Source: Pseudomonadales bacterium
GTDB lineage: Bacteria > Pseudomonadota > Gammaproteobacteria > Pseudomonadales > JBFGWM01
Length of the DNA: 64,000 bases
NCBI GenBank assembly: GCA_041682035.1
Contig: JBFKKR010000002.1
Location: 216-64,215 of the forward strand
Direction of reading: 5' to 3'
Shown: piece by piece, positions 2,499 to 63,957 of the stretch
Position numbering within the stretch: the first letter of the stretch is position 1
Layout of the letters: each line of letters begins with the position of its first letter
The notes under the pieces: generated by a model
Seen by the model: only the letters and a program-made list of their open reading frames with translations
Told to the model about the DNA's origin: nothing
Database searches by the model: none
Program-made: the position numbers and the translations under genes

Positions 2499-3611
2499 AT
2501 GAAGAAGTTGTCCAGACGCAATCTGCTTCGCGCCGGGGGTATCTCGCTACTCGGACTCGCCGCCCTCTCCACCCAGCAGATCAGGGTCCGCCAGCAGGTG
2601 CAGGACGAGTTCCGCATCGGGTTCATCTACGTCGGCGCGCGTGACGACTTCGGCTACAACCAGGCCCATGCGATGGCCGCCGCCCGTCTCGCGCGGGAAC
2701 CGAACGTGCGCGTCTTCGAGCAGGACCGGGTGCCTGAAACTGAAGAGGTACTGGCGGTCATGCAGGGCATGATCGAAAACCACGGCGTGCAGGTCATGTT
2801 CCCGACCTCCTACGGCTACTTCGACCCCTACGTGCTGGAAGCGGCGCGCAGCAATCCGGAGGTGCACTTCGTCCACGCGGGCGGACTGTACCTCCCCGGT
2901 CATCCGCAGAACGTCAGTTCCTACTTCGGTTACATCGACGAAGGGATGTTCCTCGCCGGCATCGCCGCCGGCCACGTGACCCAGACCGGCCGACTGGGCT
3001 TCGTCGCCGCCATGAACATCCCCCACGTGCACCGCAACGTCAACGCGTTCCTGCTCGGCGCACGCACGGTGCAGCCGTTCGCCACGCTCGAGGTCCGTTT
3101 CACCGGCGGATGGTTCCTCCCCGAGGCGGAACGGGCCACCTGCAATGCATTGATCGATGCCGGCGCAGACGTCATGACCTGTCACGTGGACAGCCCGCGC
3201 GCGGTGATCGAGACCAGCGGCGGCCGCGGCGTCGCCTGCGTGGGGTACCACTCGGATCTCGCATCGCTGGCGCCGGAACATGTACTGACCAGTGTCCAGT
3301 GGGACTGGTGGCCACTGGTATCGGACTACCTGCGGAAACTGCGGGCGGGTGAGGAGATTCCCCACATGCAACGCCTCGGCATGCGGGAGGGTATTGTGGT
3401 GCTCGCGCCATTCGGACCGCGGGTGCCCCAGGCCGCGCGGCTGCAGATCGCCGGGATGCACCGGAAGTTCCTCGCCGGGCAGCACAGCGTCTACACCGGA
3501 CCGATCTACGACCAGTCCGGTGAGGTGCTGATCCCGACCGGCGTGCAGCGCGAACGGGACGACCCTTGGCTGGAAACCATGGACTGGTTCGTGAAGGGCG
3601 TGCAGGCTTGA
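2499..3611 (+). CDS. BMP-family periplasmic substrate-binding protein, paralogue 2
   Basis: Tat signal LSRRNLLRAGG. It carries the same motif set as 1337-2491 (clearly a tandem paralogue by eye) and starts 7 nt after it. Confidence 0.8.
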   Translation: MKKLSRRNLLRAGGISLLGLAALSTQQIRVRQQVQDEFRIGFIYVGARDDFGYNQAHAMAAARLAREPNVRVFEQDRVPETEEVLAVMQGMIENHGVQVMFPTSYGYFDPYVLEAARSNPEVHFVHAGGLYLPGHPQNVSSYFGYIDEGMFLAGIAAGHVTQTGRLGFVAAMNIPHVHRNVNAFLLGARTVQPFATLEVRFTGGWFLPEAERATCNALIDAGADVMTCHVDSPRAVIETSGGRGVACVGYHSDLASLAPEHVLTSVQWDWWPLVSDYLRKLRAGEEIPHMQRLGMREGIVVLAPFGPRVPQAARLQIAGMHRKFLAGQHSVYTGPIYDQSGEVLIPTGVQRERDDPWLETMDWFVKGVQA

Positions 3612-6145
3612 GCCGCAGCGCAATCCTCGGTCTTCTCCTGACGACACTCATCGGGGTGGCCGGTTCATTCGGCCTCTACCGCATGGCGATGCAGAGCATC
3701 GAGCGCGACGAGCGGGCGGTGTTCATGCGGCTGGCCACCGCGCGCAGCGGCGCCATCGCGCAGCGACTTATTTCGACCCAGGAGAGCGCCATGAACATGC
3801 ATGGCCTCTACAAGGCGTCGGATCACGTCGACCCGCACGAGTTCGAGTTGTTCGGCGATCTGCAGCACCGCAGGCACACGTCCGTCCACGCCCTGCAGTG
3901 GGTGCCGCACGTACCCGGCGGCGAGCGGGCCGCCTACGAGGAGAAAGTCTCGGCCATGCTGCGGACGCCCTTCCGCATCACGGAGATGAACCAGAATGGC
4001 CTGCTGGTGCCGGCCGCTGAACGTCCCGATTACCTGCCGGTGCAGTACGTGGTCCCCTTGAAGGTGAACAAGACGCTCCTGGGGTTCGACCATGGCAGTG
4101 AAGCGGTCGTCCGCAAGACCCTGGAACTGGCGCGGTCCAGCGGGCTCACCCAGGCCACCACGGCGGTCCGGCTGCCACAGGAGATCGACCCGGCGCCTGG
4201 CGTCCTGGTGGTGGAACCGGTGTACCGGGGCAGTCGCAGCACCAGTATCGACCGGCAGAAGAACCTGACGGGATTCGTCATCGCGGTGGTGCGCATCAAG
4301 ACCGTGCTGCAAAACGCCGTGCACAGCCTGAACCAGGCCGATGCACAGATTCACACCGCGCTGTACGACGTCACCAGCGGCGCGGAGCGGTTCCTGTACA
4401 GCTACGGATCCAGTCCGGCCCGGCCCGTTTCCCCGGAATGGTTGCAGGAGACGATCGTGAACTTCGCTGGTCGCACCTGGGCCGTACGCAACCAGCCCAA
4501 CCTGCCCCTGGTGACAGGCATGCAGTGGCAGCCCCTGAGCATGCTGCTGGGCATGCTGACGCTGACGACGGTCGTCTCCATATTCATCTTCACGTTGATG
4601 TACCGGGAACAGCTGGTGTCCATCGCGGTCGCCGAGCGCACCCGCGAACTGCGGCGCAGCGAAGCCCGCATCCGCGGCCTCCTCGACACCGCCACCAACG
4701 CGATTTTCATCCTCGATGACGGCGGGCGCATCGAGAGCAGCAACCAGGCCGCGAACCGCCTGTTCGGCGACGAGGACGATGGCGGGCTGCCTGCGCATTT
4801 CGCCGAACTGTTTCCGGGTGTGCCCGAGAAGCAGCTCCTGCAGGCCTCCAACCAGGAATTCCAGGTCGTCCTGAGAGACCAGGAAAGGCGCTACCTGCAG
4901 GTCTCGGTCAGCAGCACCGGCGCCGAGGGCCAGCAGTCGCGCATCGCCGTCCTGAACGACGTCACGCTCAGGCGCCGCATGGAGAACAACGAGCGCGAGC
5001 AGAAGCTGCTGCTGCAGAACATCATGCGGTCTATGGATGAAGGTCTGCTGGTGTCGCGCGCCGGCCATCCGCTGATGGTCAACCCCAAGACCGAGTCGCT
5101 GTTTCCGAACGCATCCGCGCTGGTCCGGTCCAGGCCGGTGCCCAACCAGGTCGGCTGGCTGGACCCGGAAACGCTGGAGCCGATCCTCGAGGAGAGCCTG
5201 CCGCTGCACCGCATCCTCGTCGGCGAGGAAGTGCAGAACGAGGAGTATTTCATCCAGAACGAGTACCAGCCCGAGGGCGTCCATGTCGAAGTGACCGGCA
5301 ATGCGCTGCTTGACGCGGGCATGCGGCGCATCGGCGCGATGGTGGTGCTGCGTGACATCTCCCACCGCAAGGCATACGAGCGCAGGCTGCAGGAGACCGC
5401 CGCCCAGCTGGCACTCAGCAACCAGGAACTGGAGAGCTTTGCCCGCGCGGCCTCGCACGACCTGCAGGAACCCCTGCGCAAGGTGCAGCGCTTCGGCTCC
5501 CTGCTGCGCATGTCGCGCGCCGACCAACTGGACGAACAGGGGCTGGATTTCCTCGACCGCATGATCAATGCCGCCGACCGCATGTCCGCGCTGATCGACG
5601 GCCTGCTGACGCTGGCGCGGGTCACCTCCAAGGCCGCGCCGTTCTCCTCGACGCGCCTGAATACGGTGCTCAGCGAGGTACTGGAGGACCTGCAGATCCG
5701 GATCGAGGATACCGGCGCCGAGATCGACGCCGGTTCGCTGCCGACCATCGACGCGGACCCGGTGCAGATGCGCCAGCTGTTCCAGAACCTGATCAGCAAC
5801 GGCCTGAAATACCAGCCCGAGGGCAACCGGCCCAAGATCACCATACGCGCGGAACAGCTGATCCGGGCCCGACCGGTCGAGCACCGCTGCTGGAAGCTGA
5901 CCTTCCAGGACAACGGCATCGGCTTCGCACAGGAAGACGCGGGCCGGATTTTCGGCGTGTTCTCGCGCCTGCACGGCCGCGGCGAATACGAGGGCTCCGG
6001 CGTCGGCCTGTCCATCTGCCGCAAGATCGCCGAGCGACATCATGGCGAGATCAGCGCCACCTCGGTGCCGGGCGAGGGCGCCACCTTCACGGTCATCCTG
6101 CCGGAAAATCAGCCCGGCGCCGCCCGCACCCCGGAACCGGCATGA
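3566..6145 (+). CDS. Sensor histidine kinase: TM, periplasmic CHASE domain, TM, 2x PAS, HisKA, HATPase_c. No receiver domain.
   Basis: CHASE-like segment (LQWVPHV..ERAAYE..LPVQYVVPL). H-box FARAASHDLQEPLRKV. G-box GSGVGLSICRKIAERHHGEI. An alternative start at TTG 3608 would overlap the upstream stop as TTGA. Confidence 0.85.
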   Translation: MAGNHGLVREGRAGLSRSAILGLLLTTLIGVAGSFGLYRMAMQSIERDERAVFMRLATARSGAIAQRLISTQESAMNMHGLYKASDHVDPHEFELFGDLQHRRHTSVHALQWVPHVPGGERAAYEEKVSAMLRTPFRITEMNQNGLLVPAAERPDYLPVQYVVPLKVNKTLLGFDHGSEAVVRKTLELARSSGLTQATTAVRLPQEIDPAPGVLVVEPVYRGSRSTSIDRQKNLTGFVIAVVRIKTVLQNAVHSLNQADAQIHTALYDVTSGAERFLYSYGSSPARPVSPEWLQETIVNFAGRTWAVRNQPNLPLVTGMQWQPLSMLLGMLTLTTVVSIFIFTLMYREQLVSIAVAERTRELRRSEARIRGLLDTATNAIFILDDGGRIESSNQAANRLFGDEDDGGLPAHFAELFPGVPEKQLLQASNQEFQVVLRDQERRYLQVSVSSTGAEGQQSRIAVLNDVTLRRRMENNEREQKLLLQNIMRSMDEGLLVSRAGHPLMVNPKTESLFPNASALVRSRPVPNQVGWLDPETLEPILEESLPLHRILVGEEVQNEEYFIQNEYQPEGVHVEVTGNALLDAGMRRIGAMVVLRDISHRKAYERRLQETAAQLALSNQELESFARAASHDLQEPLRKVQRFGSLLRMSRADQLDEQGLDFLDRMINAADRMSALIDGLLTLARVTSKAAPFSSTRLNTVLSEVLEDLQIRIEDTGAEIDAGSLPTIDADPVQMRQLFQNLISNGLKYQPEGNRPKITIRAEQLIRARPVEHRCWKLTFQDNGIGFAQEDAGRIFGVFSRLHGRGEYEGSGVGLSICRKIAERHHGEISATSVPGEGATFTVILPENQPGAARTPEPA

Positions 6146-6492
6146 ACAGGGGGCAATGGCAACCGGTATTCGAGAGCACCGCGCTCCCCGGCGGCGCGGC
6201 ACGCGAGTTCTGGGTGCAGGGCGTGGCCGGCTTCGCGCTGCGCCTCCACGGCCACCTGGGGGCGTTCGTCAACCACTGCCCGCACCAGGGCCTGCCCCTG
6301 AACTGGCGCCCGCACGACTTCCTGTCCGTGGACCGCCTGCACATCGTCTGCGCCAATCACGGCGCGGTGTTCGACTGCTACAGCGGCCACTGCCTGGGCG
6401 GTCCCTGCGCGGGCGGCGGGCTGGCGCCCTGGGACGTCCGCGAGCAGGACGGCATGATCGAGGTGTGTACGCCGCCCCCGCCGTTCCGCTGA
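6142..6492 (+). CDS. Small Rieske [2Fe-2S] domain protein
   Basis: 116 aa with CPH...CANH (a CxH / CxxH ligand pair). The ATG overlaps the kinase stop as ATGA (6142-6145). Confidence 0.75.
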   Translation: MNRGQWQPVFESTALPGGAAREFWVQGVAGFALRLHGHLGAFVNHCPHQGLPLNWRPHDFLSVDRLHIVCANHGAVFDCYSGHCLGGPCAGGGLAPWDVREQDGMIEVCTPPPPFR

Positions 6493-6499
6493 CGCCGCC

Positions 6500-7702
6500 T
6501 TACCCGTCCAGCGCGCGCCGGATGCGTGCGACCCCCTCCTGCAGGCGCGCGATGTCCGTGGTGTAGGCCAGCCGGATGCGGCGGTCTGCCTCCTGCACGC
6601 CGAAATCATCGCCCGGCGTGACAGCGACACCGTGATCCTCCAGCAGGCGACGACAGAACTCCATGGCGCGCTCCCCGGTGGCGCCGATGTCGAGATACAG
6701 GTAGAAGGCGCCGGCGGGATCGGCGAGCAGCGGCAGCGGCAGCGGCGCCAGCGCTTCCAGCAGCGCATCGCGACGCTGCGCGAACCGGGCGCAACGGGCC
6801 TGCAGTTCCTCCTGTACGCCGGGCTCGAAGGCTGCCAGTGCGGCGTACTGTGACGGCGTCGGTGCGGCCAGGTAGATATTCTGCGCCAGCCGCTCCAGCG
6901 CCTCGCCGGCCCAGTCGGGCGCGACCAGCCAGCCAACCCGCCAGCCGGTCATACCGAAATACTTCGAGAAACTGTTGATCACGATCACGTGGTCACCGCA
7001 CCGCAGCGCCGTGCAGGGTTCCCCGCTGTACTGCAGCCCCTGGTAGATCTCGTCGCACAGGACCAGCCCGCCCAGCCCGGCCACGGCATCGCAGATCCGC
7101 CCGAGCTGTTCACCGTCCAGGACCGAACCGGTCGGGTTGGCCGGGCTGGCGAGCATGACCGCGCGGGTACGGCCGGTCCAGTGGCGCGCAATCAGTTCGG
7201 GGGTCAGTTGCCAGTTGTCCGCCGCGCAGACCGGCACCATTACCGGGCGCGCCCCGCTGCACAGCACGAAGCTGCGATTGCACGGATAGCCGGGGTCCGG
7301 CAGCAGCACCTCGTCCCCGGGGCCGAAGAAGCAGGGCGCGATGATCGAGAGCGCGCCCGAGGCGCCCGGCGTGACGAGCACCCTTCCGGGTGCCACCTCC
7401 AGCCCGAACCGCGTGCGGTACCAGTTCGCGATGGCCGCCCTGAGGGCCGGCAGCCCGGCCGCCGGGGTGTAGTGGGTGCGCCCGGCCTGCAGCGCCTCGA
7501 CGCCACGCCGGCAGACCGCTTCCGGTGTCGCAAAATCCGGTTCGCCCACCTCCAGGTGGACGATATCCTGCCCCTGCGCCTCCAGTTCGCGGGCGCGGCC
7601 CAGCAGCGCCATCACGTGGAACGGCCGGACCTCCCGCATGCGCGCGGCGATCGCCCCGGCCCGCCGGTTCCCGGGCTGCCCCGGCCCCGAATGCACTGTC
7701 AC
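6500..7702 (-). CDS. Class I/II PLP-dependent aminotransferase
   Basis: PFHVM..LEVGEPDF, SPANPTG, and SFSKYFGMTGWRVG (the PLP lysine motif). I chose the GTG 7702 start (GGGAG upstream); ATG 7639 is the alternative. The 476-aa ORF in the track is N-terminally over-extended. Confidence 0.85.
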   Translation of the reverse strand: MTVHSGPGQPGNRRAGAIAARMREVRPFHVMALLGRARELEAQGQDIVHLEVGEPDFATPEAVCRRGVEALQAGRTHYTPAAGLPALRAAIANWYRTRFGLEVAPGRVLVTPGASGALSIIAPCFFGPGDEVLLPDPGYPCNRSFVLCSGARPVMVPVCAADNWQLTPELIARHWTGRTRAVMLASPANPTGSVLDGEQLGRICDAVAGLGGLVLCDEIYQGLQYSGEPCTALRCGDHVIVINSFSKYFGMTGWRVGWLVAPDWAGEALERLAQNIYLAAPTPSQYAALAAFEPGVQEELQARCARFAQRRDALLEALAPLPLPLLADPAGAFYLYLDIGATGERAMEFCRRLLEDHGVAVTPGDDFGVQEADRRIRLAYTTDIARLQEGVARIRRALDG

Positions 7703-7951
7703 AAAATGGTGCTCCCGCCCGGATGGTGGCCAGTGACTATAATTGACCGCAGGCAGGGAAGCACTCACGACGCCTGGATGCCGGCGGGAACCTGGAAGGG
7801 GCCATGCTGGTATGCCCTCCGGATTTCTGATAGCTTCGCTCCGTTTTGCAGGGCCGCCAGCCGATTCGACCGGTTTCCGTGTGTCGATGGGCAGGGTTTC
7901 ACCGGGAGGGCGGCCGCAAGGGATTGTCATCGTCAGCGGGAGGCCTCAGGC

Positions 7952-9058
7952 ATGCCAAAGGGCACGAAATCCACGACCAAGAAGACCGGCGCCAGCCGCC
8001 AGGCCACCACCGCCAAGAGCAGCCGGGCCGCCCGGCCAGCCAGAAGCGCCGCGGCTCGCAAGCCCGCCGCAAAGAAGACCGCCACCTCGGCCCGGACGAC
8101 AACGAAAAAACCCGCCCCGCGCAAGAGCGCGGCAGCATCCGTCAAAGAAGCAGTAGCGAAGGCAGTGAAGAAAGTATCCAGCAAGCGGACCGCAACCACC
8201 CCGGCCAAGAAGACCTCCACGGCACGCAAGCCGACGACGGCCGGCAAGACCGCCGCCAGCAAGACCCGGCGCACGACGACGGCCAAGGCTGCCACGCGCA
8301 AGCCGGCCACGAAGGCCAAGGCCGCAGCCGCCGGCAAGGCGAAGACCACGGCACGGGCGGCCACCAAGACCAAGGCGACCGCGAAAAAGACCCCGGTCAG
8401 GAAAACGGGCGCTGCCAGCAGCAAGCCGGCGGCCAAGGCGGCTGCGCCGGCGAAGCCGTCCCGCGCCAGGGCGGCCGCCGCGAAGACGACAACGCGCAAG
8501 CCCTCCGGCACCGCGCGCAAGCCCGCCGCGACCAAGGCCCCGGCGAAGGCTGCCGCCACGCAGAAGAAGCCGGCGGCGCGGAAACCGGCCGGCAGCGCGC
8601 GCCCGAACCCACGGCGCGCCTCGGCGAGCATCCTGTCGGGCCCGATGATGTCGGAAATCCAGCCCTACAAGTCGAAGTCGAACGAAGAGTACATGTCGCG
8701 CGAGCAGCTCGAGCACTTCTCGCAGATTCTCCTGAAGTGGAAGCAGGAACTGATGCAGGAAGTGGATCGCACCATGATCCACATGAAGGAAGAGGCGGCG
8801 AACTTTGCCGACCCGAGCGACCGCGCCACCCAGGAGGAGGAGTTCAGCCTGGAGCTGCGCACCCGCGACCGGGAGCGGAAGCTGATCCGGAAGATCGATG
8901 ACACGCTCGATCTGATCGACCGGGAAGACTACGGTTATTGCGAATCCTGCGGCGTCGAGATCGGCGTCCGTCGCCTCGAGGCACGCCCCACCGCCACGCT
9001 CTGCATCGACTGCAAGACCCTGGCCGAGGTGAAAGAGCGGCAGGTCGGCGGCCGCTAG
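7952..9058 (+). CDS. dksA: RNA polymerase-binding factor DksA with a ~228-aa Lys/Ala/Thr-rich N-terminal extension
   Basis: The C-terminal ~140 aa are near-identical in pattern to E. coli DksA (FADPSDRATQEEEFSLELR, CESCGVEIGVRRLEARPTATLCIDC). ATG 7952 is preceded by GGGAGG. One frame runs uninterrupted through the basic low-complexity region. Confidence 0.8.
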   Translation: MPKGTKSTTKKTGASRQATTAKSSRAARPARSAAARKPAAKKTATSARTTTKKPAPRKSAAASVKEAVAKAVKKVSSKRTATTPAKKTSTARKPTTAGKTAASKTRRTTTAKAATRKPATKAKAAAAGKAKTTARAATKTKATAKKTPVRKTGAASSKPAAKAAAPAKPSRARAAAAKTTTRKPSGTARKPAATKAPAKAAATQKKPAARKPAGSARPNPRRASASILSGPMMSEIQPYKSKSNEEYMSREQLEHFSQILLKWKQELMQEVDRTMIHMKEEAANFADPSDRATQEEEFSLELRTRDRERKLIRKIDDTLDLIDREDYGYCESCGVEIGVRRLEARPTATLCIDCKTLAEVKERQVGGR

Positions 9059-9083
9059 GCCGCCGGAGCGTCTCCCACCGCGG

Positions 9084-10010
9084 ATGGGTCCGGCCCGGCG
9101 CACGGCGGGCGCCGCCATCGTCGGCCGGTTCGCTCCGTCCCCCACGGGCCCCCTGCACTTCGGTTCCCTGTTCGCCGCGCTGGCGAGCTACCTGGATGTC
9201 GCTTCGCGCGGCGGGCGCTGGCTGGTCCGCATCGAGGACATCGACCCCCCGCGCGAGGTAACCGGCGCCCGCCAGGCCATCCTGGAGGCGCTTGCCGCGC
9301 ACGGGCTGAACCCGGTCGAGGATGTCATCTACCAGTCGCACCAGGCGGCACTGCACGATGCGTCGCTGCAGGCACTGGGCCGGGACGGCCACCTGTTCTA
9401 CTGCACCTGCACCCGCAAGGCCCTGGCGGCGGTCCCGGGCCCCTACCCGGGCACCTGCCGCAACCGGCGCGAGCCACCCCGGCGCTCGCACGCGGTGCGG
9501 TTCCGGGTCGCGGAGGGAGCAGCCATCCGCTTCGAAGACGGCATCCTCGGTCCGCAGGTTTTCGAACCGGGGGATCTGGGCGATTTCATCGTGCGCCGGC
9601 GCGACGGGCTGGTGGCCTACCACCTGGCGGTGGTCGCCGACGATGCGGCACAGGGCATCTCCACGATCCTGCGCGGCGCCGACCTGCTGGATTCCACGCC
9701 GCTGCATATCTGCCTGCAACACGCACTGGGACACCCGGTACCGGAGTACCTGCACGTTCCGGTCCTGACCTGTGGCGGCGCCAAGCTGAGCAAGCAGACC
9801 GGCGCTCCCGCCCTCGATGCCACGCGCGCGGCCGAGAACCTGTGCCGGGCGCTCGCCCTGCTTGGCCAGCCGGTGCCCGGCAGCGGGCCGGGCCGCGAGG
9901 TGACGACGCTGCTGAAGACCGCGTGCGCCAACTGGCGGCGCGAGCTGGTCCCCAGGCAGGCGGAGATCGAGCTGGGGCCGGAATTCGGCGATGTCACGGG
10001 CGGTGCATGA
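9084..10010 (+). CDS. gluQ: tRNA glutamyl-Q(34) synthetase (GluQRS)
   Basis: GRFAPSPTGPLHFGSL, RIEDID and a KLSKQ-type motif. It sits immediately downstream of dksA, as in E. coli and Pseudomonas. Confidence 0.85.
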   Translation: MGPARRTAGAAIVGRFAPSPTGPLHFGSLFAALASYLDVASRGGRWLVRIEDIDPPREVTGARQAILEALAAHGLNPVEDVIYQSHQAALHDASLQALGRDGHLFYCTCTRKALAAVPGPYPGTCRNRREPPRRSHAVRFRVAEGAAIRFEDGILGPQVFEPGDLGDFIVRRRDGLVAYHLAVVADDAAQGISTILRGADLLDSTPLHICLQHALGHPVPEYLHVPVLTCGGAKLSKQTGAPALDATRAAENLCRALALLGQPVPGSGPGREVTTLLKTACANWRRELVPRQAEIELGPEFGDVTGGA

Positions 10011-10155: not shown

Positions 10156-11190
10156 ATGAAGCGGCAGGCGCCTGCCCGACCGGATTCCACGCCGACGACC
10201 GTACCGTCCTCTTTCCACGGCATGATCGGCGCGTCGCCGCCCATGCAGGCCGTATTCCGTTATATCGAGCGCGCTGCGCCCACCGACGCCACCGTGCTGA
10301 TCAGCGGTGAAACCGGCACCGGCAAGGAACTGGCGGCGCGTGCGCTGCACGCCCTGAGCAATCGTGACAGCGGCGAATTCATCGCGGTGAACTGCGCGGC
10401 CATCCCGGAAACCCTGGTGGAGGCCGAACTGTTCGGTAACGAGAAGGGCGCGTTCACCGGCGCCGTCAGCAAGCGGCGCGGCCTGGTGGAGGCCGCTGAC
10501 CGCGGCACGCTGTTCCTTGACGAGGTGGGCGAACTGCCACTGGAGGCGCAGGCCCGGCTCCTGCGGGTATTGCAGGAAGGCGAGATCCGGCGCGTCGGCG
10601 CGACGCGCACCAACACGGTCAACGTCCGTATCATCGCCGCAACCCACCGCAACCTGTCCGCCCTGGTGCAGGAGGGTCGTTTCCGCGAGGATCTCTACTT
10701 CCGGCTGAACGTGCTGTCGATCCGCATGCCGCCCCTGCGCGAACGCGCCGAGGACATCCCGGCCCTCGCCGAAAGCCTGCTGCGTCAGCACGCGGCGGGC
10801 CTGCAACGGCCGGTCCGTGGCTTCGAGAGCGAGGCGCTGCGGACGCTGTGCCGGGCGCCGTGGCGCGGCAACGTGCGGGAACTGGACAACGTCATCCACC
10901 GCGCCTGCATCCTCAGCGACAGCCCGGTCATCGCGCAGGGTGATCTGCAGTTCGACGGCGAAGGGGAAGCTGGCGCCGATGACGGCCACGATGTCGCCGA
11001 CTGGCCCCGGCAACTGAGCCTGGAGCAGTACGTGGAGCACTTCCTGCTCGCCAACCAGCACCACATGACCGAGACCGAGATTGCCCAGAACCTGGGCATC
11101 AGCCGCAAGTGCCTGTGGGAGAAGCGTCAGAAACTGGGCATTCCGCGCCGCCAGGCCAGCGAGCGGCGGGGCGAGACGGAACGCGCGTGA
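10156..11190 (+). CDS. Sigma-54-dependent transcriptional activator (bEBP) with an AAA+ domain and Fis-type HTH only. No receiver or sensory domain.
   Basis: Walker A GETGTGKE, GAFTGA loop, Walker B FLDEVG, C-terminal HTH IAQNLGISRKCLWEKRQKLGI. An in-frame TAG at 10036-10038 limits any N-terminal extension to 39 codons. Confidence 0.9.
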   Translation: MKRQAPARPDSTPTTVPSSFHGMIGASPPMQAVFRYIERAAPTDATVLISGETGTGKELAARALHALSNRDSGEFIAVNCAAIPETLVEAELFGNEKGAFTGAVSKRRGLVEAADRGTLFLDEVGELPLEAQARLLRVLQEGEIRRVGATRTNTVNVRIIAATHRNLSALVQEGRFREDLYFRLNVLSIRMPPLRERAEDIPALAESLLRQHAAGLQRPVRGFESEALRTLCRAPWRGNVRELDNVIHRACILSDSPVIAQGDLQFDGEGEAGADDGHDVADWPRQLSLEQYVEHFLLANQHHMTETEIAQNLGISRKCLWEKRQKLGIPRRQASERRGETERA

Positions 11191-11192
11191 AC

Positions 11193-11239
11193 TGTTACCA
11201 ATCGAAACACTTCGCGATTATTTTGACCATCCGGTAACA
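11193..11239. promoter_or_regulatory. Candidate upstream activator sites: TGTTAC (11193-11198) and the inverted GTAACA (11234-11239)
   Basis: The two are exact inverted hexamers about 105-145 bp upstream of the -24/-12 element. They match the CbrB half-site hexamers as I recall them, but the spacing is 35 bp rather than about 12 bp. Confidence 0.4.
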
Positions 11240-11313
11240 CTTTGCGCTTGATTATTGCAGTAATTTCTTCGATAAATATCGTATACCTTTGTATTTATTG
11301 ATTATTTTTTATT

Positions 11314-11329
11314 TGGCACGCAACCTGCA
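11314..11329 (+). promoter_or_regulatory. Sigma-54 (-24/-12) promoter
   Basis: TGGCACGCAACCTGCA compared with the consensus TGGCACG-N4-TTGCW. The GG to GC spacing is exact and there is one mismatch. A visibly AT-rich stretch of about 70 bp precedes it. Confidence 0.7.
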
Positions 11330-11339
11330 CAGCATATCA

Positions 11340-11495
11340 CGCCAAGAGGACACACGCTGCGGCGAAGGCTTTCGGCCAGGGTCACGAGGACCAGAGTCTG
11401 CGGGTGACGAGGCATGGACGCCTCACGGAATAACAACAACAATCCCTTGCTTCAACCTGTGAGGGGAAGCTCTTCGGAGCTTCCTCCTCGTTTTT
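11340..11495 (+). ncRNA. Candidate sigma-54-dependent sRNA, CrcZ-like (Hfq-binding A-rich tract)
   Basis: The predicted start is about 12 nt after the -12 GC. It contains AAUAACAACAACAAU at 11429-11443 and ends at an intrinsic terminator. No credible ORF is present. Its position between the bEBP gene and pcnB mirrors crcZ. Confidence 0.5.
11463..11495 (+). terminator. Intrinsic terminator
   Basis: A 10-bp stem GGGGAAGCUC/GAGCUUCCUC with a UUCG loop, followed by CUCG and U5. Confidence 0.7.
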
Positions 11496-11803
11496 CCGGG
11501 ATGATCCGTTTTCCTGAGTGGCAAAGTCGTGGTAAAAAGACGCCGCGATTCGCCGGCCCATGCAGCAGACCCGCCCACCCCCTCTGCATGGCTGGTCGCG
11601 CCCGGTTTCCCCGGAAACTGTGAGTGCGCCGGCGAAAGGGGCAAGGTCCGCCGATCCGGACCGGCCCCGCAAGCCAGACGGCCCGCCCGATCCAGCCTCG
11701 CCGCCCCCTGGCGCGAAGCGTCGCTGATCGTCGACCCGGAGCGTGCCCGGACCGGTGGCAACTGGAAGGTACCTGGGCTCGCCCGACTGCGAGAGGAGTT
11801 CGC

Positions 11804-29576: not shown

Positions 29577-29653
<77 letters not shown>

Positions 29654-30139: not shown

Positions 30140-30225
30140 TGGTGCCGAAGGCCGGACTTGAACCGGCACGGCTTGCGCCACTGCCCCCTCAAGACAGCGT
30201 GTCTACCAATTCCACCACTTCGGCA
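30140..30225 (-). tRNA. tRNA-Leu (GAG)
   Basis: The reverse complement GCCGAAGTGGTGGAATTGGTAGACAC...CTTGAGGGGGCAG...GGTTCAAGTCCGGCCTTCGGCACCA shows a long variable arm. It sits downstream of secG, like E. coli leuU. Confidence 0.9.
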
Positions 30226-45003: not shown

Positions 45004-48234
<3,231 letters not shown>

Positions 48235-58875: not shown

Positions 58876-60242
58876 TGCGAGAAGTACCGGTACAGCGTCA
58901 GGGTGAAGATGACCAGCACCGCCGCCGGTGACAGGTACCGCACCAGGAGCCGCCAAATGCGGTAAATGGCCGGCGTCTCCAGCGCCAGTTCACCATGCAC
59001 GTCCGGCTCGCGCATCTTCCAGCCGACGAAGATCGCGATCGCCACGCCGCCCAGGGGCAGCATGATGTTGGCGGTGAGGAAATCCAGGGCATCGAAGAAG
59101 GTCAGCCCGAAGACCTGCACCTCTTTCCAGATGTTGAACGAGAAGACCGTGCCCAGCCCGAGCAACCAGGTCAGGAAGCCCAGGAGAATGGAAATCTTTA
59201 CGCGACTGATGCCGAACTTCTCCACCGCCCAGGCCACCGCCGGCTCGATCAGGGAAATGGAGGAACTCCATGCCGCGAACGTCACCAGCACGAAAAACAG
59301 CACGCCGAAGAAGCCGCCCAGGGGCATGTTGCCGAACGCCAGGGGCAGCGTGACGAACATCAGGCCGGGCCCCGCACCGGCCTCCAGGTCGTTGGCGAAC
59401 ACGATCGGGAAGATGGCGAGCCCGGCAACCAGCGCGACCAGCGTATCGAGGAACGCCACCATGCAGACCGTCGCGCCGATGGAAGATCTTTTCGGCATGT
59501 AGGCGCCGTAGATCATGATCGCGCCCATGCCGAGACTGAGCGTGAAGAAGGCGTGGCCCATGGCCACCACCAGGCTGTTCACGTTGAGGTTCTCGGCACG
59601 CATGCTGAACAGGAAGGTGAAACCCTTCATGAAAGCACCGGTGTTGACGGCGTACCCGACCAGGATCAGCAGCAGCACGAACAGCGCGGGCATCAGGATG
59701 CGCACCGCTGCCTCGAGGCCCCGGTTGACGCCGCGTGCAACGACGAACATGGTCATGAACATGAACACCGTGTGCCAGAACGCCAGCCGTGCCGGGTTCG
59801 CGGTGAGATCGTTGAAGGTGCTGCCGGCGAACTCCGATTTCGCCATGTGGAACGTGCCATCGGCCATCCGCAGGATGTACTCCAGCGCCCACCCGGCGAT
59901 CACGCTGTAATAGGAGAGGATGAGGAAACCGGCGATGACGCCGACCCAGCCCAGCAGGCCCCAGGCGCGTGACACGCCGGCTTCGCCCGCCAGCGAAATC
60001 ATGGTGTTGACCGGACTCTGGCGGCCACTGCGACCGAGCAGCACCTCCGCCATCATGATGGGCACGCCGACCATGAGGATGCACAGCAGGTAGACCAGCA
60101 CGAACACACCGCCGCCGTTTTCACCGGCGATGTAGGGAAATTTCCAGATGTTGCCCAGGCCCACCGCGGAGCCGGTGGCGGCGAGGATGAAGGTCAGGCG
60201 GCTGGCCCAGATTCCGTGGATCGACTGGCTGTCTCTTGGCAT
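58872..60242 (-). CDS. Sodium-dependent transporter, NSS/SNF family
   Basis: [20 protein letters not shown] and about 12 TM segments. Confidence 0.88.
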
Positions 60243-63600: not shown

Positions 63601-63957
63601 GGGGGCGATTTGGCTTCGACGTGGGTCGCGAACCCCAAGGTGCATGCCGAGATGGCAGCGAATCTCGTAAATCCAAAGCTGTAAACCAATAGTTGCCAAC
63701 GACGACAACTACGCACTAGCGGCCTAAACCCCGCTAGCAGTTCTGAAGAGGGGCCTGTACTTCTGAAAGAACTGTCATATTCACAGGATCGCGTGAGGGG
63801 GTGTTCGTGACCCGAGCGTTAAAACCCAAACTGCGGACTCGCCCTACACACCCTGCCCGTTGGGTCGTGATGGGTTAAATCAATAGACGGACCTAAGCAT
63901 GTAGAGCCGAGGGCAGAGGGCTGACGGACGCGGGTTCAACTCCCGCCGCCTCCACCA
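63601..63957 (+). ncRNA. ssrA: tmRNA (SsrA), one-piece
   Basis: The 5' GGGGGCG pairs with the 3' CGCCTCC-ACCA, including a G3:U pair. The tag ORF GCC AAC GAC GAC AAC TAC GCA CTA GCG GCC TAA (63695-63727) encodes ANDDNYALAA. The T-arm is GGTTCAACTCC. Confidence 0.93.

Follow-up and report, generated by a model that had tools for sequence, protein, structure and literature searches.

We analysed a stretch of 64,000 nucleotides (nt) from a Pseudomonadales bacterium (contig JBFKKR010000002.1, positions 216 to 64,215; hereafter the window) and found that positions 7952-9058 of its forward strand are a real gene for a long form of DksA. The product has 368 amino acids (aa), of which the first 228 form a polycationic N-terminal tail ahead of a canonical DksA core. 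Translation of this tail very probably begins at the ATG at 7952. The gene is a single open frame of 368 codons without interruption, with the following elements.

7938-7943, +: Shine-Dalgarno sequence GGGAGG, 8 nt 5' of ATG 7952
7952-7954, +: ATG start codon, which opens the 368-codon dksA frame
7952-8635, +: N-terminal polycationic low-complexity tail, aa 1-228 (composition, predicted disorder, codon evidence)
8636-9055, +: canonical DksA core, aa 229-368, comprising linker, coiled coil, zinc ribbon and C-terminal helix (family profiles, match to 1TJL, model helices)
8810-8827, +: coiled-coil tip motif DPSDRA (DxxDxA; D287, D290, A292), invariant in alignments of 13 and 61 sequences
8939-9013, +: C4 zinc finger (C330, C333, C351, C354), also R345 and K355 (invariant columns; Pfam zf-dksA_traR)
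9056-9058, +: TAG stop codon, which terminates the dksA frame

An initial annotation, made from the letters of the window, had described an uninterrupted frame from ATG 7952, preceded by GGGAGG, to the stop at 9056-58, with DksA fused in frame to a basic N-terminal region. Sequence and translation confirm this: there is one 368-codon open reading frame (ORF), and the family matches fall on its core. Ahead of the core, in-frame ATG, GTG or TTG codons occur only at ATG 7952, GTG 8165 and ATG 8645/8648, which agrees with the earlier statement that 8168-8644 holds no in-frame start. No Shine-Dalgarno site was found upstream of the two internal methionines, Met232/233 (8645/8648). The further claim that a start at Met232 would clip conserved DksA sequence has faint support: a phmmer alignment does extend, weakly, to residue 222, but the first invariant column in the 13- and 61-sequence alignments is P238.

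The core matches Pfam DksA_N (PF21157) over residues 252-322 (E = 1.4e-31; 108.9 bits, cut-off 27) and zf-dksA_traR (PF01258) over residues 326-358 (E = 2.2e-11; 44 bits, cut-off 24.9), and it reaches 166.4 bits with the NCBIfam model TIGR02420 dksA (cut-off 115.5). The narrow enterobacterial model PRK10778 aligns through its positions 9-151 of 151 to residues 225-367, at 215.8 bits and thus below its cut-off of 289. The E. coli DksA structure in Protein Data Bank (PDB) entry 1TJL is matched by aa 222-367 (E = 2.7e-58), and the list of structure matches also contains E. coli DksA in complexes with RNA polymerase (RNAP; 5VSW, 5W1T, 7KHE, 7KHI). These results agree with the initial reading of the last ~140 codons as DksA with its tip and C4 zinc finger. 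The tip sequence is DPSDRATQEEEF (residues 287-298). The invariant residues K314, R345 and K355 align with E. coli K98, R129 and K139 (E. coli numbering counted from the alignment), which we take to be the site 2 residues for guanosine tetraphosphate (ppGpp). An AlphaFold2 model based on the 61-sequence alignment contains the DksA hairpin helices (250-283 and 291-323), the zinc ribbon and a C-terminal helix (352-366), with predicted local distance difference test (pLDDT) values of 80-90. Core identity to proteobacterial DksA is 60-79%, the isoelectric point (pI) of the core alone is 5.0, and no ORF of the DksA family was found in the window besides the 7952-9058 gene. The core is that of an orthodox and probably the sole housekeeping DksA, encoded at a dksA-gluQ locus.

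The tail has a very different composition: 68 A, 43 K, 38 T, 22 R, 19 P and 19 S make up 209 of its 228 residues (92%), as expected from the initial description of ~228 codons of K/A/T/R/P/S low complexity. It contains 65 basic residues and one acidic residue, with a net charge of about +64 and a pI of 12.0; the pI of the whole 368-aa protein is 10.9. Residues 1-230 lack secondary structure in the AlphaFold2 model (pLDDT 41-55), and the tail is predicted to be fully disordered. Searched alone against Pfam and NCBIfam at E <= 10, it matched no family, the HC2 profile (PF07382) included; the initial term "histone-H1-like" is therefore apt as a label of composition (a polycation of pI 12) and does not denote homology. 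Tandem Repeats Finder detected no tandem repeat with a score of at least 30 in 7800-9100, and a recent expansion of repeats is thus rejected as the origin of the tail; the tetrapeptides KPAA, ARKP and RKPA occur in it four times each, scattered. Arg and Thr are more frequent than in most homologues, and the median K/(K+R) is 0.94, whereas the tail has 0.66; the raised Arg share fits the high GC content. A conserved PRR-like processing site between tail and core was considered as a candidate and rejected, since it occurs in only 6 of 119 homologues.

Because the DNA is 66-75% GC, an open frame alone says little about coding. In the tail frame, however, the GC content at third codon positions (GC3) is 0.864, compared with 0.86-0.88 in the adjacent genes, and the synonymous choices for K, A, T, R and P agree with those genes, in line with the initial remark that the tail uses codons typical of the real genes of the window. 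Whole-codon log-odds cannot tell the frames apart because the amino-acid composition is so biased, and we therefore used a score of synonymous choices only. By this measure the tail reaches 0.48 in the sense frame and at most 0.16 in the antisense frames, while the core and gluQ score 0.69-0.70. The 249 nt 5' of dksA (7703-7951) score as non-coding in all six frames, and the A-T skew changes from -0.19 to +0.79 exactly at 7952. Moreover, the identical 368-aa protein is called, with the same neighbours, on two other contigs of independently assembled metagenome-assembled genomes (MAGs).

Three long ORFs overlap the gene and are regarded as high-GC artefacts.

7946-9145, -: antisense shadow ORF, 399 aa
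7933-8631, -: shadow ORF, 232 aa
7846-8901, +: shadow ORF in another forward frame, 351 aa

They are of the sort that gene callers label hypothetical proteins. Family searches with the 399-aa and 351-aa ORFs gave no match. The 399-aa ORF was rejected as a gene: it crosses the clear DksA core, as the 351-aa ORF also does, has no Pfam match and has a poor synonymous codon score.

Long-form DksA among relatives

The nearest species-representative genome, a Pseudomonadales MAG (L001), encodes a 345-aa DksA with a core 74% identical to that of the window protein and gluQ directly downstream. Its start, MPAKSKDKSK, follows a GAGGGA Shine-Dalgarno sequence at a similar distance and opens a K/A/T-rich tail of ~205 aa. 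The best 120 matches in a search with the full-length protein are all DksA proteins that have basic tails and a length of 204-304 aa, and many of these long relatives carry a precomputed HC2 (PF07382) match. The window protein, with 237 residues ahead of the PY anchor compared with 74-174 in these best 120 matches, is the longest of them. An extended match in Pseudomonas sp. RIT409 proved to be a low-complexity artefact; the DksA of this strain is short.

As the full-length search is biased by the tail, we ran a search with the core only against 1.84 billion cluster representatives and analysed the 119 top matches with a recognisable anchor. More than 60 aa precede the core in 86 of the 119, and K+R makes up at least 20% of the tail in 62 of these 86, in a set that is enriched in proteins with variable tails through clustering at 50% identity and may include some over-called starts. 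The basic tails range from 60 to more than 300 aa, in proteins of up to 452 aa, so that tails comparable to or longer than that of the window protein do occur; they are also present in clearly low-GC, Lys-rich lineages. A Met in the 20 residues that precede the core is present in only 8 of the 119 tailed homologues, so initiation at an internal AUG is not a conserved alternative. This is a stronger argument against internal initiation than the clipped N-terminus.

When proteins with cores at least 95% identical are compared in pairs, 98% of the pairs have tails of unequal length, with differences of up to 58 residues. A tail that is kept and yet so variable is what would be expected if charge and length matter rather than sequence, and selection appears to act on these bulk properties.

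A comparison of length and architecture with the DksA proteins of related genomes, as proposed with the initial annotation, thus places the window protein among widespread basic-tailed forms encoded at dksA-gluQ loci. The sfsA/aminotransferase-dksA-gluQ locus holds the long form in Luminiphilus syltensis, in a Thiohalobacteraceae MAG and in a 579-kb metagenomic contig, and public protein sets contain hundreds of long DksA proteins with the same one-ORF architecture, including some from complete genomes. Judged by these sequences, long-form DksA is common in Gammaproteobacteria, and the window protein is an example of extreme length.

Possible role of the tail

In structures of DksA bound to RNAP, the coiled coil is inserted in the secondary channel, and the globular domain and N-terminus lie at the channel rim. 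Since the N-terminus of DksA is outside the channel, the tail would project outward into solvent. The core of the window protein would act as usual: the coiled coil with its DxxDxA tip would enter the secondary channel, the zinc-ribbon globular domain would sit at the rim, and DksA together with ppGpp would reprogram initiation at ribosomal RNA (rRNA) and amino-acid promoters. The tail, with a computed contour length of ~80 nm and a random-coil radius of gyration of ~5 nm, could reach DNA around or beyond RNAP and bind it electrostatically and non-specifically, which would concentrate or retain DksA on the nucleoid beside RNAP. At high copy number DksA would itself be a nucleoid-associated protein, possibly with a compacting effect as in the Streptomyces protein DdbA. 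We thus consider it fairly probable that the gene yields a long-form DksA from ATG 7952 whose core is an ordinary DksA and whose tail binds DNA or another polyanion by its charge and favours retention on the nucleoid. Tethering to DNA or the nucleoid as such is plausible by analogy with other polycationic tails, namely those of DdbA, AlgP/PhaF and CarD.

Several points weigh against this reading. Polycations bind RNA, polyphosphate (polyP) and acidic proteins as readily as DNA. The Lys density of the tail is lower than in H1, AlgP or most homologues (the tail has 19% K, 10% R and 17% Thr), and no histone-like family model in Pfam or NCBIfam matches it. Its whole-codon scores are no better than those of two other frames, and a strict sigma-70 scan of 7500-9300 returned no promoter. 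Experimental support for proteobacterial DksA tails ends at translation, which was demonstrated in Xanthomonas, and by analogy with the processed form seen there, part of the DksA pool may lose its tail.

The alternative that fares best accepts that the tail is translated and assigns it a main partner other than DNA. It would bind polyP or RNA, join RNAP or polyP condensates, or control stability, for instance through polyP- or Lon-type breakdown of basic proteins, or proteolytic release of the core, and would thereby couple the dosage or location of DksA to starvation. Charge and disorder without sequence conservation, together with rapid change in length, would suit any polyanion. AlgP, whose tail is comparable, is associated with granules of polyP (PMC9239181), and a reference cited in that paper is quoted there for the regulation of polyP accumulation by DksA in E. 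coli. The processed DksA variant in Xanthomonas (PMC5559785) would fit proteolytic release. However, no DksA tail was found to be linked directly with polyP, RNA or proteolysis, the only tested analogue, DdbA, binds DNA (PMC3643593), and there is no conserved cleavage motif, the PRR-like linker being confined to the 6 homologues mentioned above. We regard a partner other than DNA as rather unlikely.

Far less probable is a start at Met232/233 (8645/8648) that yields a canonical DksA of ~137 aa as the functional product, with the upstream frame a high-GC artefact or a functionless translated leader. High-GC DNA does contain long spurious ORFs, such as the 399-aa antisense ORF here; a start at Met232 would retain every invariant DksA column, the first of which is P238; and the whole-codon scores of the tail do not exceed those of two other frames. 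Yet 8645 lacks a Shine-Dalgarno site, the tail has gene-like GC3 and synonymous usage with a switch in composition exactly at ATG 7952, and the internal Met is missing in 111 of the 119 tailed homologues. In addition, basic tails are present in lineages of low GC, in which chance would rarely produce long ORFs, and a tail peptide was found by mass spectrometry (MS) in Xanthomonas (PMC5559785).

Finally, an assembly or sequencing artefact, in which a lost stop codon or a frameshift joins a separate gene for a basic protein to dksA, might be suspected in a metagenome-derived source with error-prone, low-complexity GC-rich DNA, but it can practically be set aside, as the identical 368-aa product is found on two other independently assembled contigs, the same one-ORF architecture recurs in hundreds of relatives, complete genomes included, and the core has neither a separate start nor a Shine-Dalgarno site of its own.

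Returning to a long-form DksA with a polyanion-binding tail, a broader reading is possible, which we put forward tentatively and hold to be doubtful as yet: in many Gammaproteobacteria, the sole housekeeping DksA may double as an abundant nucleoid-associated or polyP-responsive protein, whose fast-evolving tail couples the ppGpp/DksA stringent response to chromosome compaction or to polyP/RNAP condensates. If so, the state of the nucleoid or of polyP would set the availability of DksA at RNAP, a layer absent from the E. coli paradigm, and a nucleoid-binding element would be physically linked to the core transcription machinery. The published view of the H1-DksA fusion as streptomycete-specific would then be far off. 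Mechanistic knowledge of DksA has been gained nearly entirely with the E. coli protein of 151 aa. Should the tail tether DksA to DNA or polyP, the concentration and search kinetics of DksA, and perhaps its promoter selectivity, would be fundamentally different in many Gammaproteobacteria, both environmental and plant-pathogenic. The role of the tail is directly testable in Xanthomonas or Luminiphilus. The result for the window itself is modest, namely a correct gene model and an extreme-length case of a partly documented architecture, although the commonness of long-form DksA may mildly surprise E. coli specialists. Such genes also present an annotation hazard, as they are often truncated or overlaid by false antisense genes, as in Xanthomonas and with the 399-aa ORF here.

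Upstream region and genomic neighbourhood

The surroundings of dksA and one further RNA gene of the window comprise these features.

7703-7951, +: divergent intergenic region and dksA leader, between an aminotransferase gene (-) and dksA; GC 0.63-0.68, non-coding score
9084-10010, +: gluQ-like gene (glutamyl-Q tRNA(Asp) synthetase family, PF00749), 25 nt 3' of dksA
63601-63957, +: transfer-messenger RNA (tmRNA) with the tag ANDDNYALAA

With the gluQ-like gene 25 nt downstream, we take the dksA-gluQ operon to be orthologous to that of other species. The dksA-gluQ pairing recurs in L001, the nearest relative, in L013 from Luminiphilus, in L014 and in the metagenomic contig L015. On the 5' side of dksA (window about 2952-7702, corresponding to L011 1-4751) lie a Bmp-family gene, the gene of a CHASE-PAS histidine kinase (845 aa), one for a small Rieske protein and, in divergent orientation, that of a class I/II aminotransferase; the order Rieske-aminotransferase-dksA-gluQ is found again in L015.

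Within the upstream region, a perfect TATAAT (7738-7743) abuts a TTGACC (both within 7738-7748), and the block GGATTTCTGATAGCTTCGCTCCGTTTTGCAGG (7821-7852) has an aligned counterpart, GTTTTTCTGGTAGCTTCTGCAGGCTTTGCTG, on the 5' side of the long dksA in L001, in regions that are otherwise unalignable. Judging from sequence, the TATAAT/TTGACC site and the 7821-7852 block may be promoter or leader elements of dksA. Rfam gave chance-level matches only for the dksA region, and five terminator-like matches on the minus strand within the tail were likewise dismissed as being at chance level.

Downstream of gluQ, positions 10156-11190 (+) encode a 344-aa sigma-54 activator that has an AAA+ domain but lacks a receiver domain; its counterpart at this position in Luminiphilus has 472 aa and includes a receiver domain. 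As the gap after gluQ is only 146 nt, a missed N-terminal domain of the 344-aa protein is excluded. The low-GC gap directly 3' of the activator gene (11191-11803) contains a sigma-54-type promoter, TTGGCACgcaacCTGCA (11313-11329, +), and ~100 nt beyond it a CA motif, AATAACAACAACAA (11429-11442, +), followed by a strong hairpin and T-run (11461-11495). Between the activator and pcnB, Luminiphilus L013 (about 6275-6380) shows this order too, with TTGGCACtacacGTGCAT, followed by CA motifs and then a hairpin. This combination of an activator with a sigma-54 promoter/CA-motif element resembles what we take to be the CbrB-CrcZ arrangement beside dksA-gluQ in Pseudomonas. The 11313-11495 element had no Rfam match at E <= 1; it may be a short CrcZ-like small RNA (sRNA) that acts as a sponge for Hfq/Crc.

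The tmRNA tag is presumably of the Pseudomonas type, which would fit a gammaproteobacterial origin. Transfer RNA (tRNA) genes are predicted at 29577-29653 (-), 30140-30224 (-), 46978-47059 (+) and 59802-59894 (+). Of these, tRNA-Met and tRNA-Leu were called by both ARAGORN and Rfam, while tRNA-Trp (82 nt) and tRNA-Arg (93 nt) were called by ARAGORN only and may be false positives.

Comparison with known systems

The architecture of the window protein is already described, in DdbA and in Xanthomonas, and is neither unique nor new. A literature search, in which most subscription journals lay outside the scope, found nothing on the function of the proteobacterial tail, and the searchable text of a functional study of Xanthomonas citri DksA had no match for "N-terminal".

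With the DksA of E. coli and Pseudomonas (151 and 147 aa; 1TJL, 5VSW, 7KHI), the window core shares the tip, the zinc finger, the ppGpp-site residues and the dksA-gluQ context. It differs from them in its 228 extra N-terminal residues with a net charge of about +64.

The closest described case is that of Xanthomonas euvesicatoria, whose DksA was re-annotated from 147 to 256 aa by proteogenomics (PMC5559785). The MS peptide AAPAAAKPAAKPVASK, located upstream of the old start, together with mutagenesis of the start codon, proves that the Xanthomonas tail is translated, and a processed, shorter form of the protein was also observed (PMC5559785). Deletion of the false gene XCV2557, which overlaps the dksA tail in antisense, was proposed in the same study (PMC5559785). 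Like the window protein, this DksA is gammaproteobacterial, carries an in-frame K/A/P-rich N-terminal extension and has a spurious antisense ORF above its tail. In contrast, its tail has ~109 aa instead of 228, its start codon is GTG, and its gene neighbours are different according to the supplement (PMC5559785).

The same combination of an H1-like N-domain and a DksA-like C-domain is found in Streptomyces coelicolor DdbA (SCO2075), described by Aldridge et al. 2013 (PMC3643593). The N-domain of DdbA alone binds and condenses DNA, overexpression of DdbA suppresses relA phenotypes, and the fusion was regarded as streptomycete-specific (PMC3643593). Unlike the window protein, DdbA is actinobacterial, is one of three DksA-like paralogues, is encoded near ftsZ and has a tail of ~93 aa with (S/T)(A/T)AKK repeats. 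The window protein is judged not to be an orthologue of SCO2075, from which it is set apart, by description, through its gammaproteobacterial-type dksA-gluQ locus, the tmRNA tag of the window and its proteobacterial core; the two fusions probably arose independently.

More distant parallels concern the tail or the overall design. In Pseudomonas, the KPAA-type tails of AlgP and PhaF bind DNA and tether granules to the nucleoid (PMC9239181). They share with the window tail the long, disordered K/A/P-rich polycation attached to a functional domain, but they are C-terminal and built of regular tandem repeats, whereas the window tail is N-terminal, lacks DNA repeats and is rich in Thr and Arg. Myxobacterial CarD joins an RNAP-interacting domain to an HMGA or histone-H1-like DNA-binding tail, of which the H1-like form is essential (PMC2919716). 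As in the window protein, a module that binds RNAP is thus combined with a basic tail, which in CarD binds DNA non-specifically; the CarD module, however, has an unrelated fold (CarD_TRCF, which binds the beta subunit), and its tail is C-terminal.

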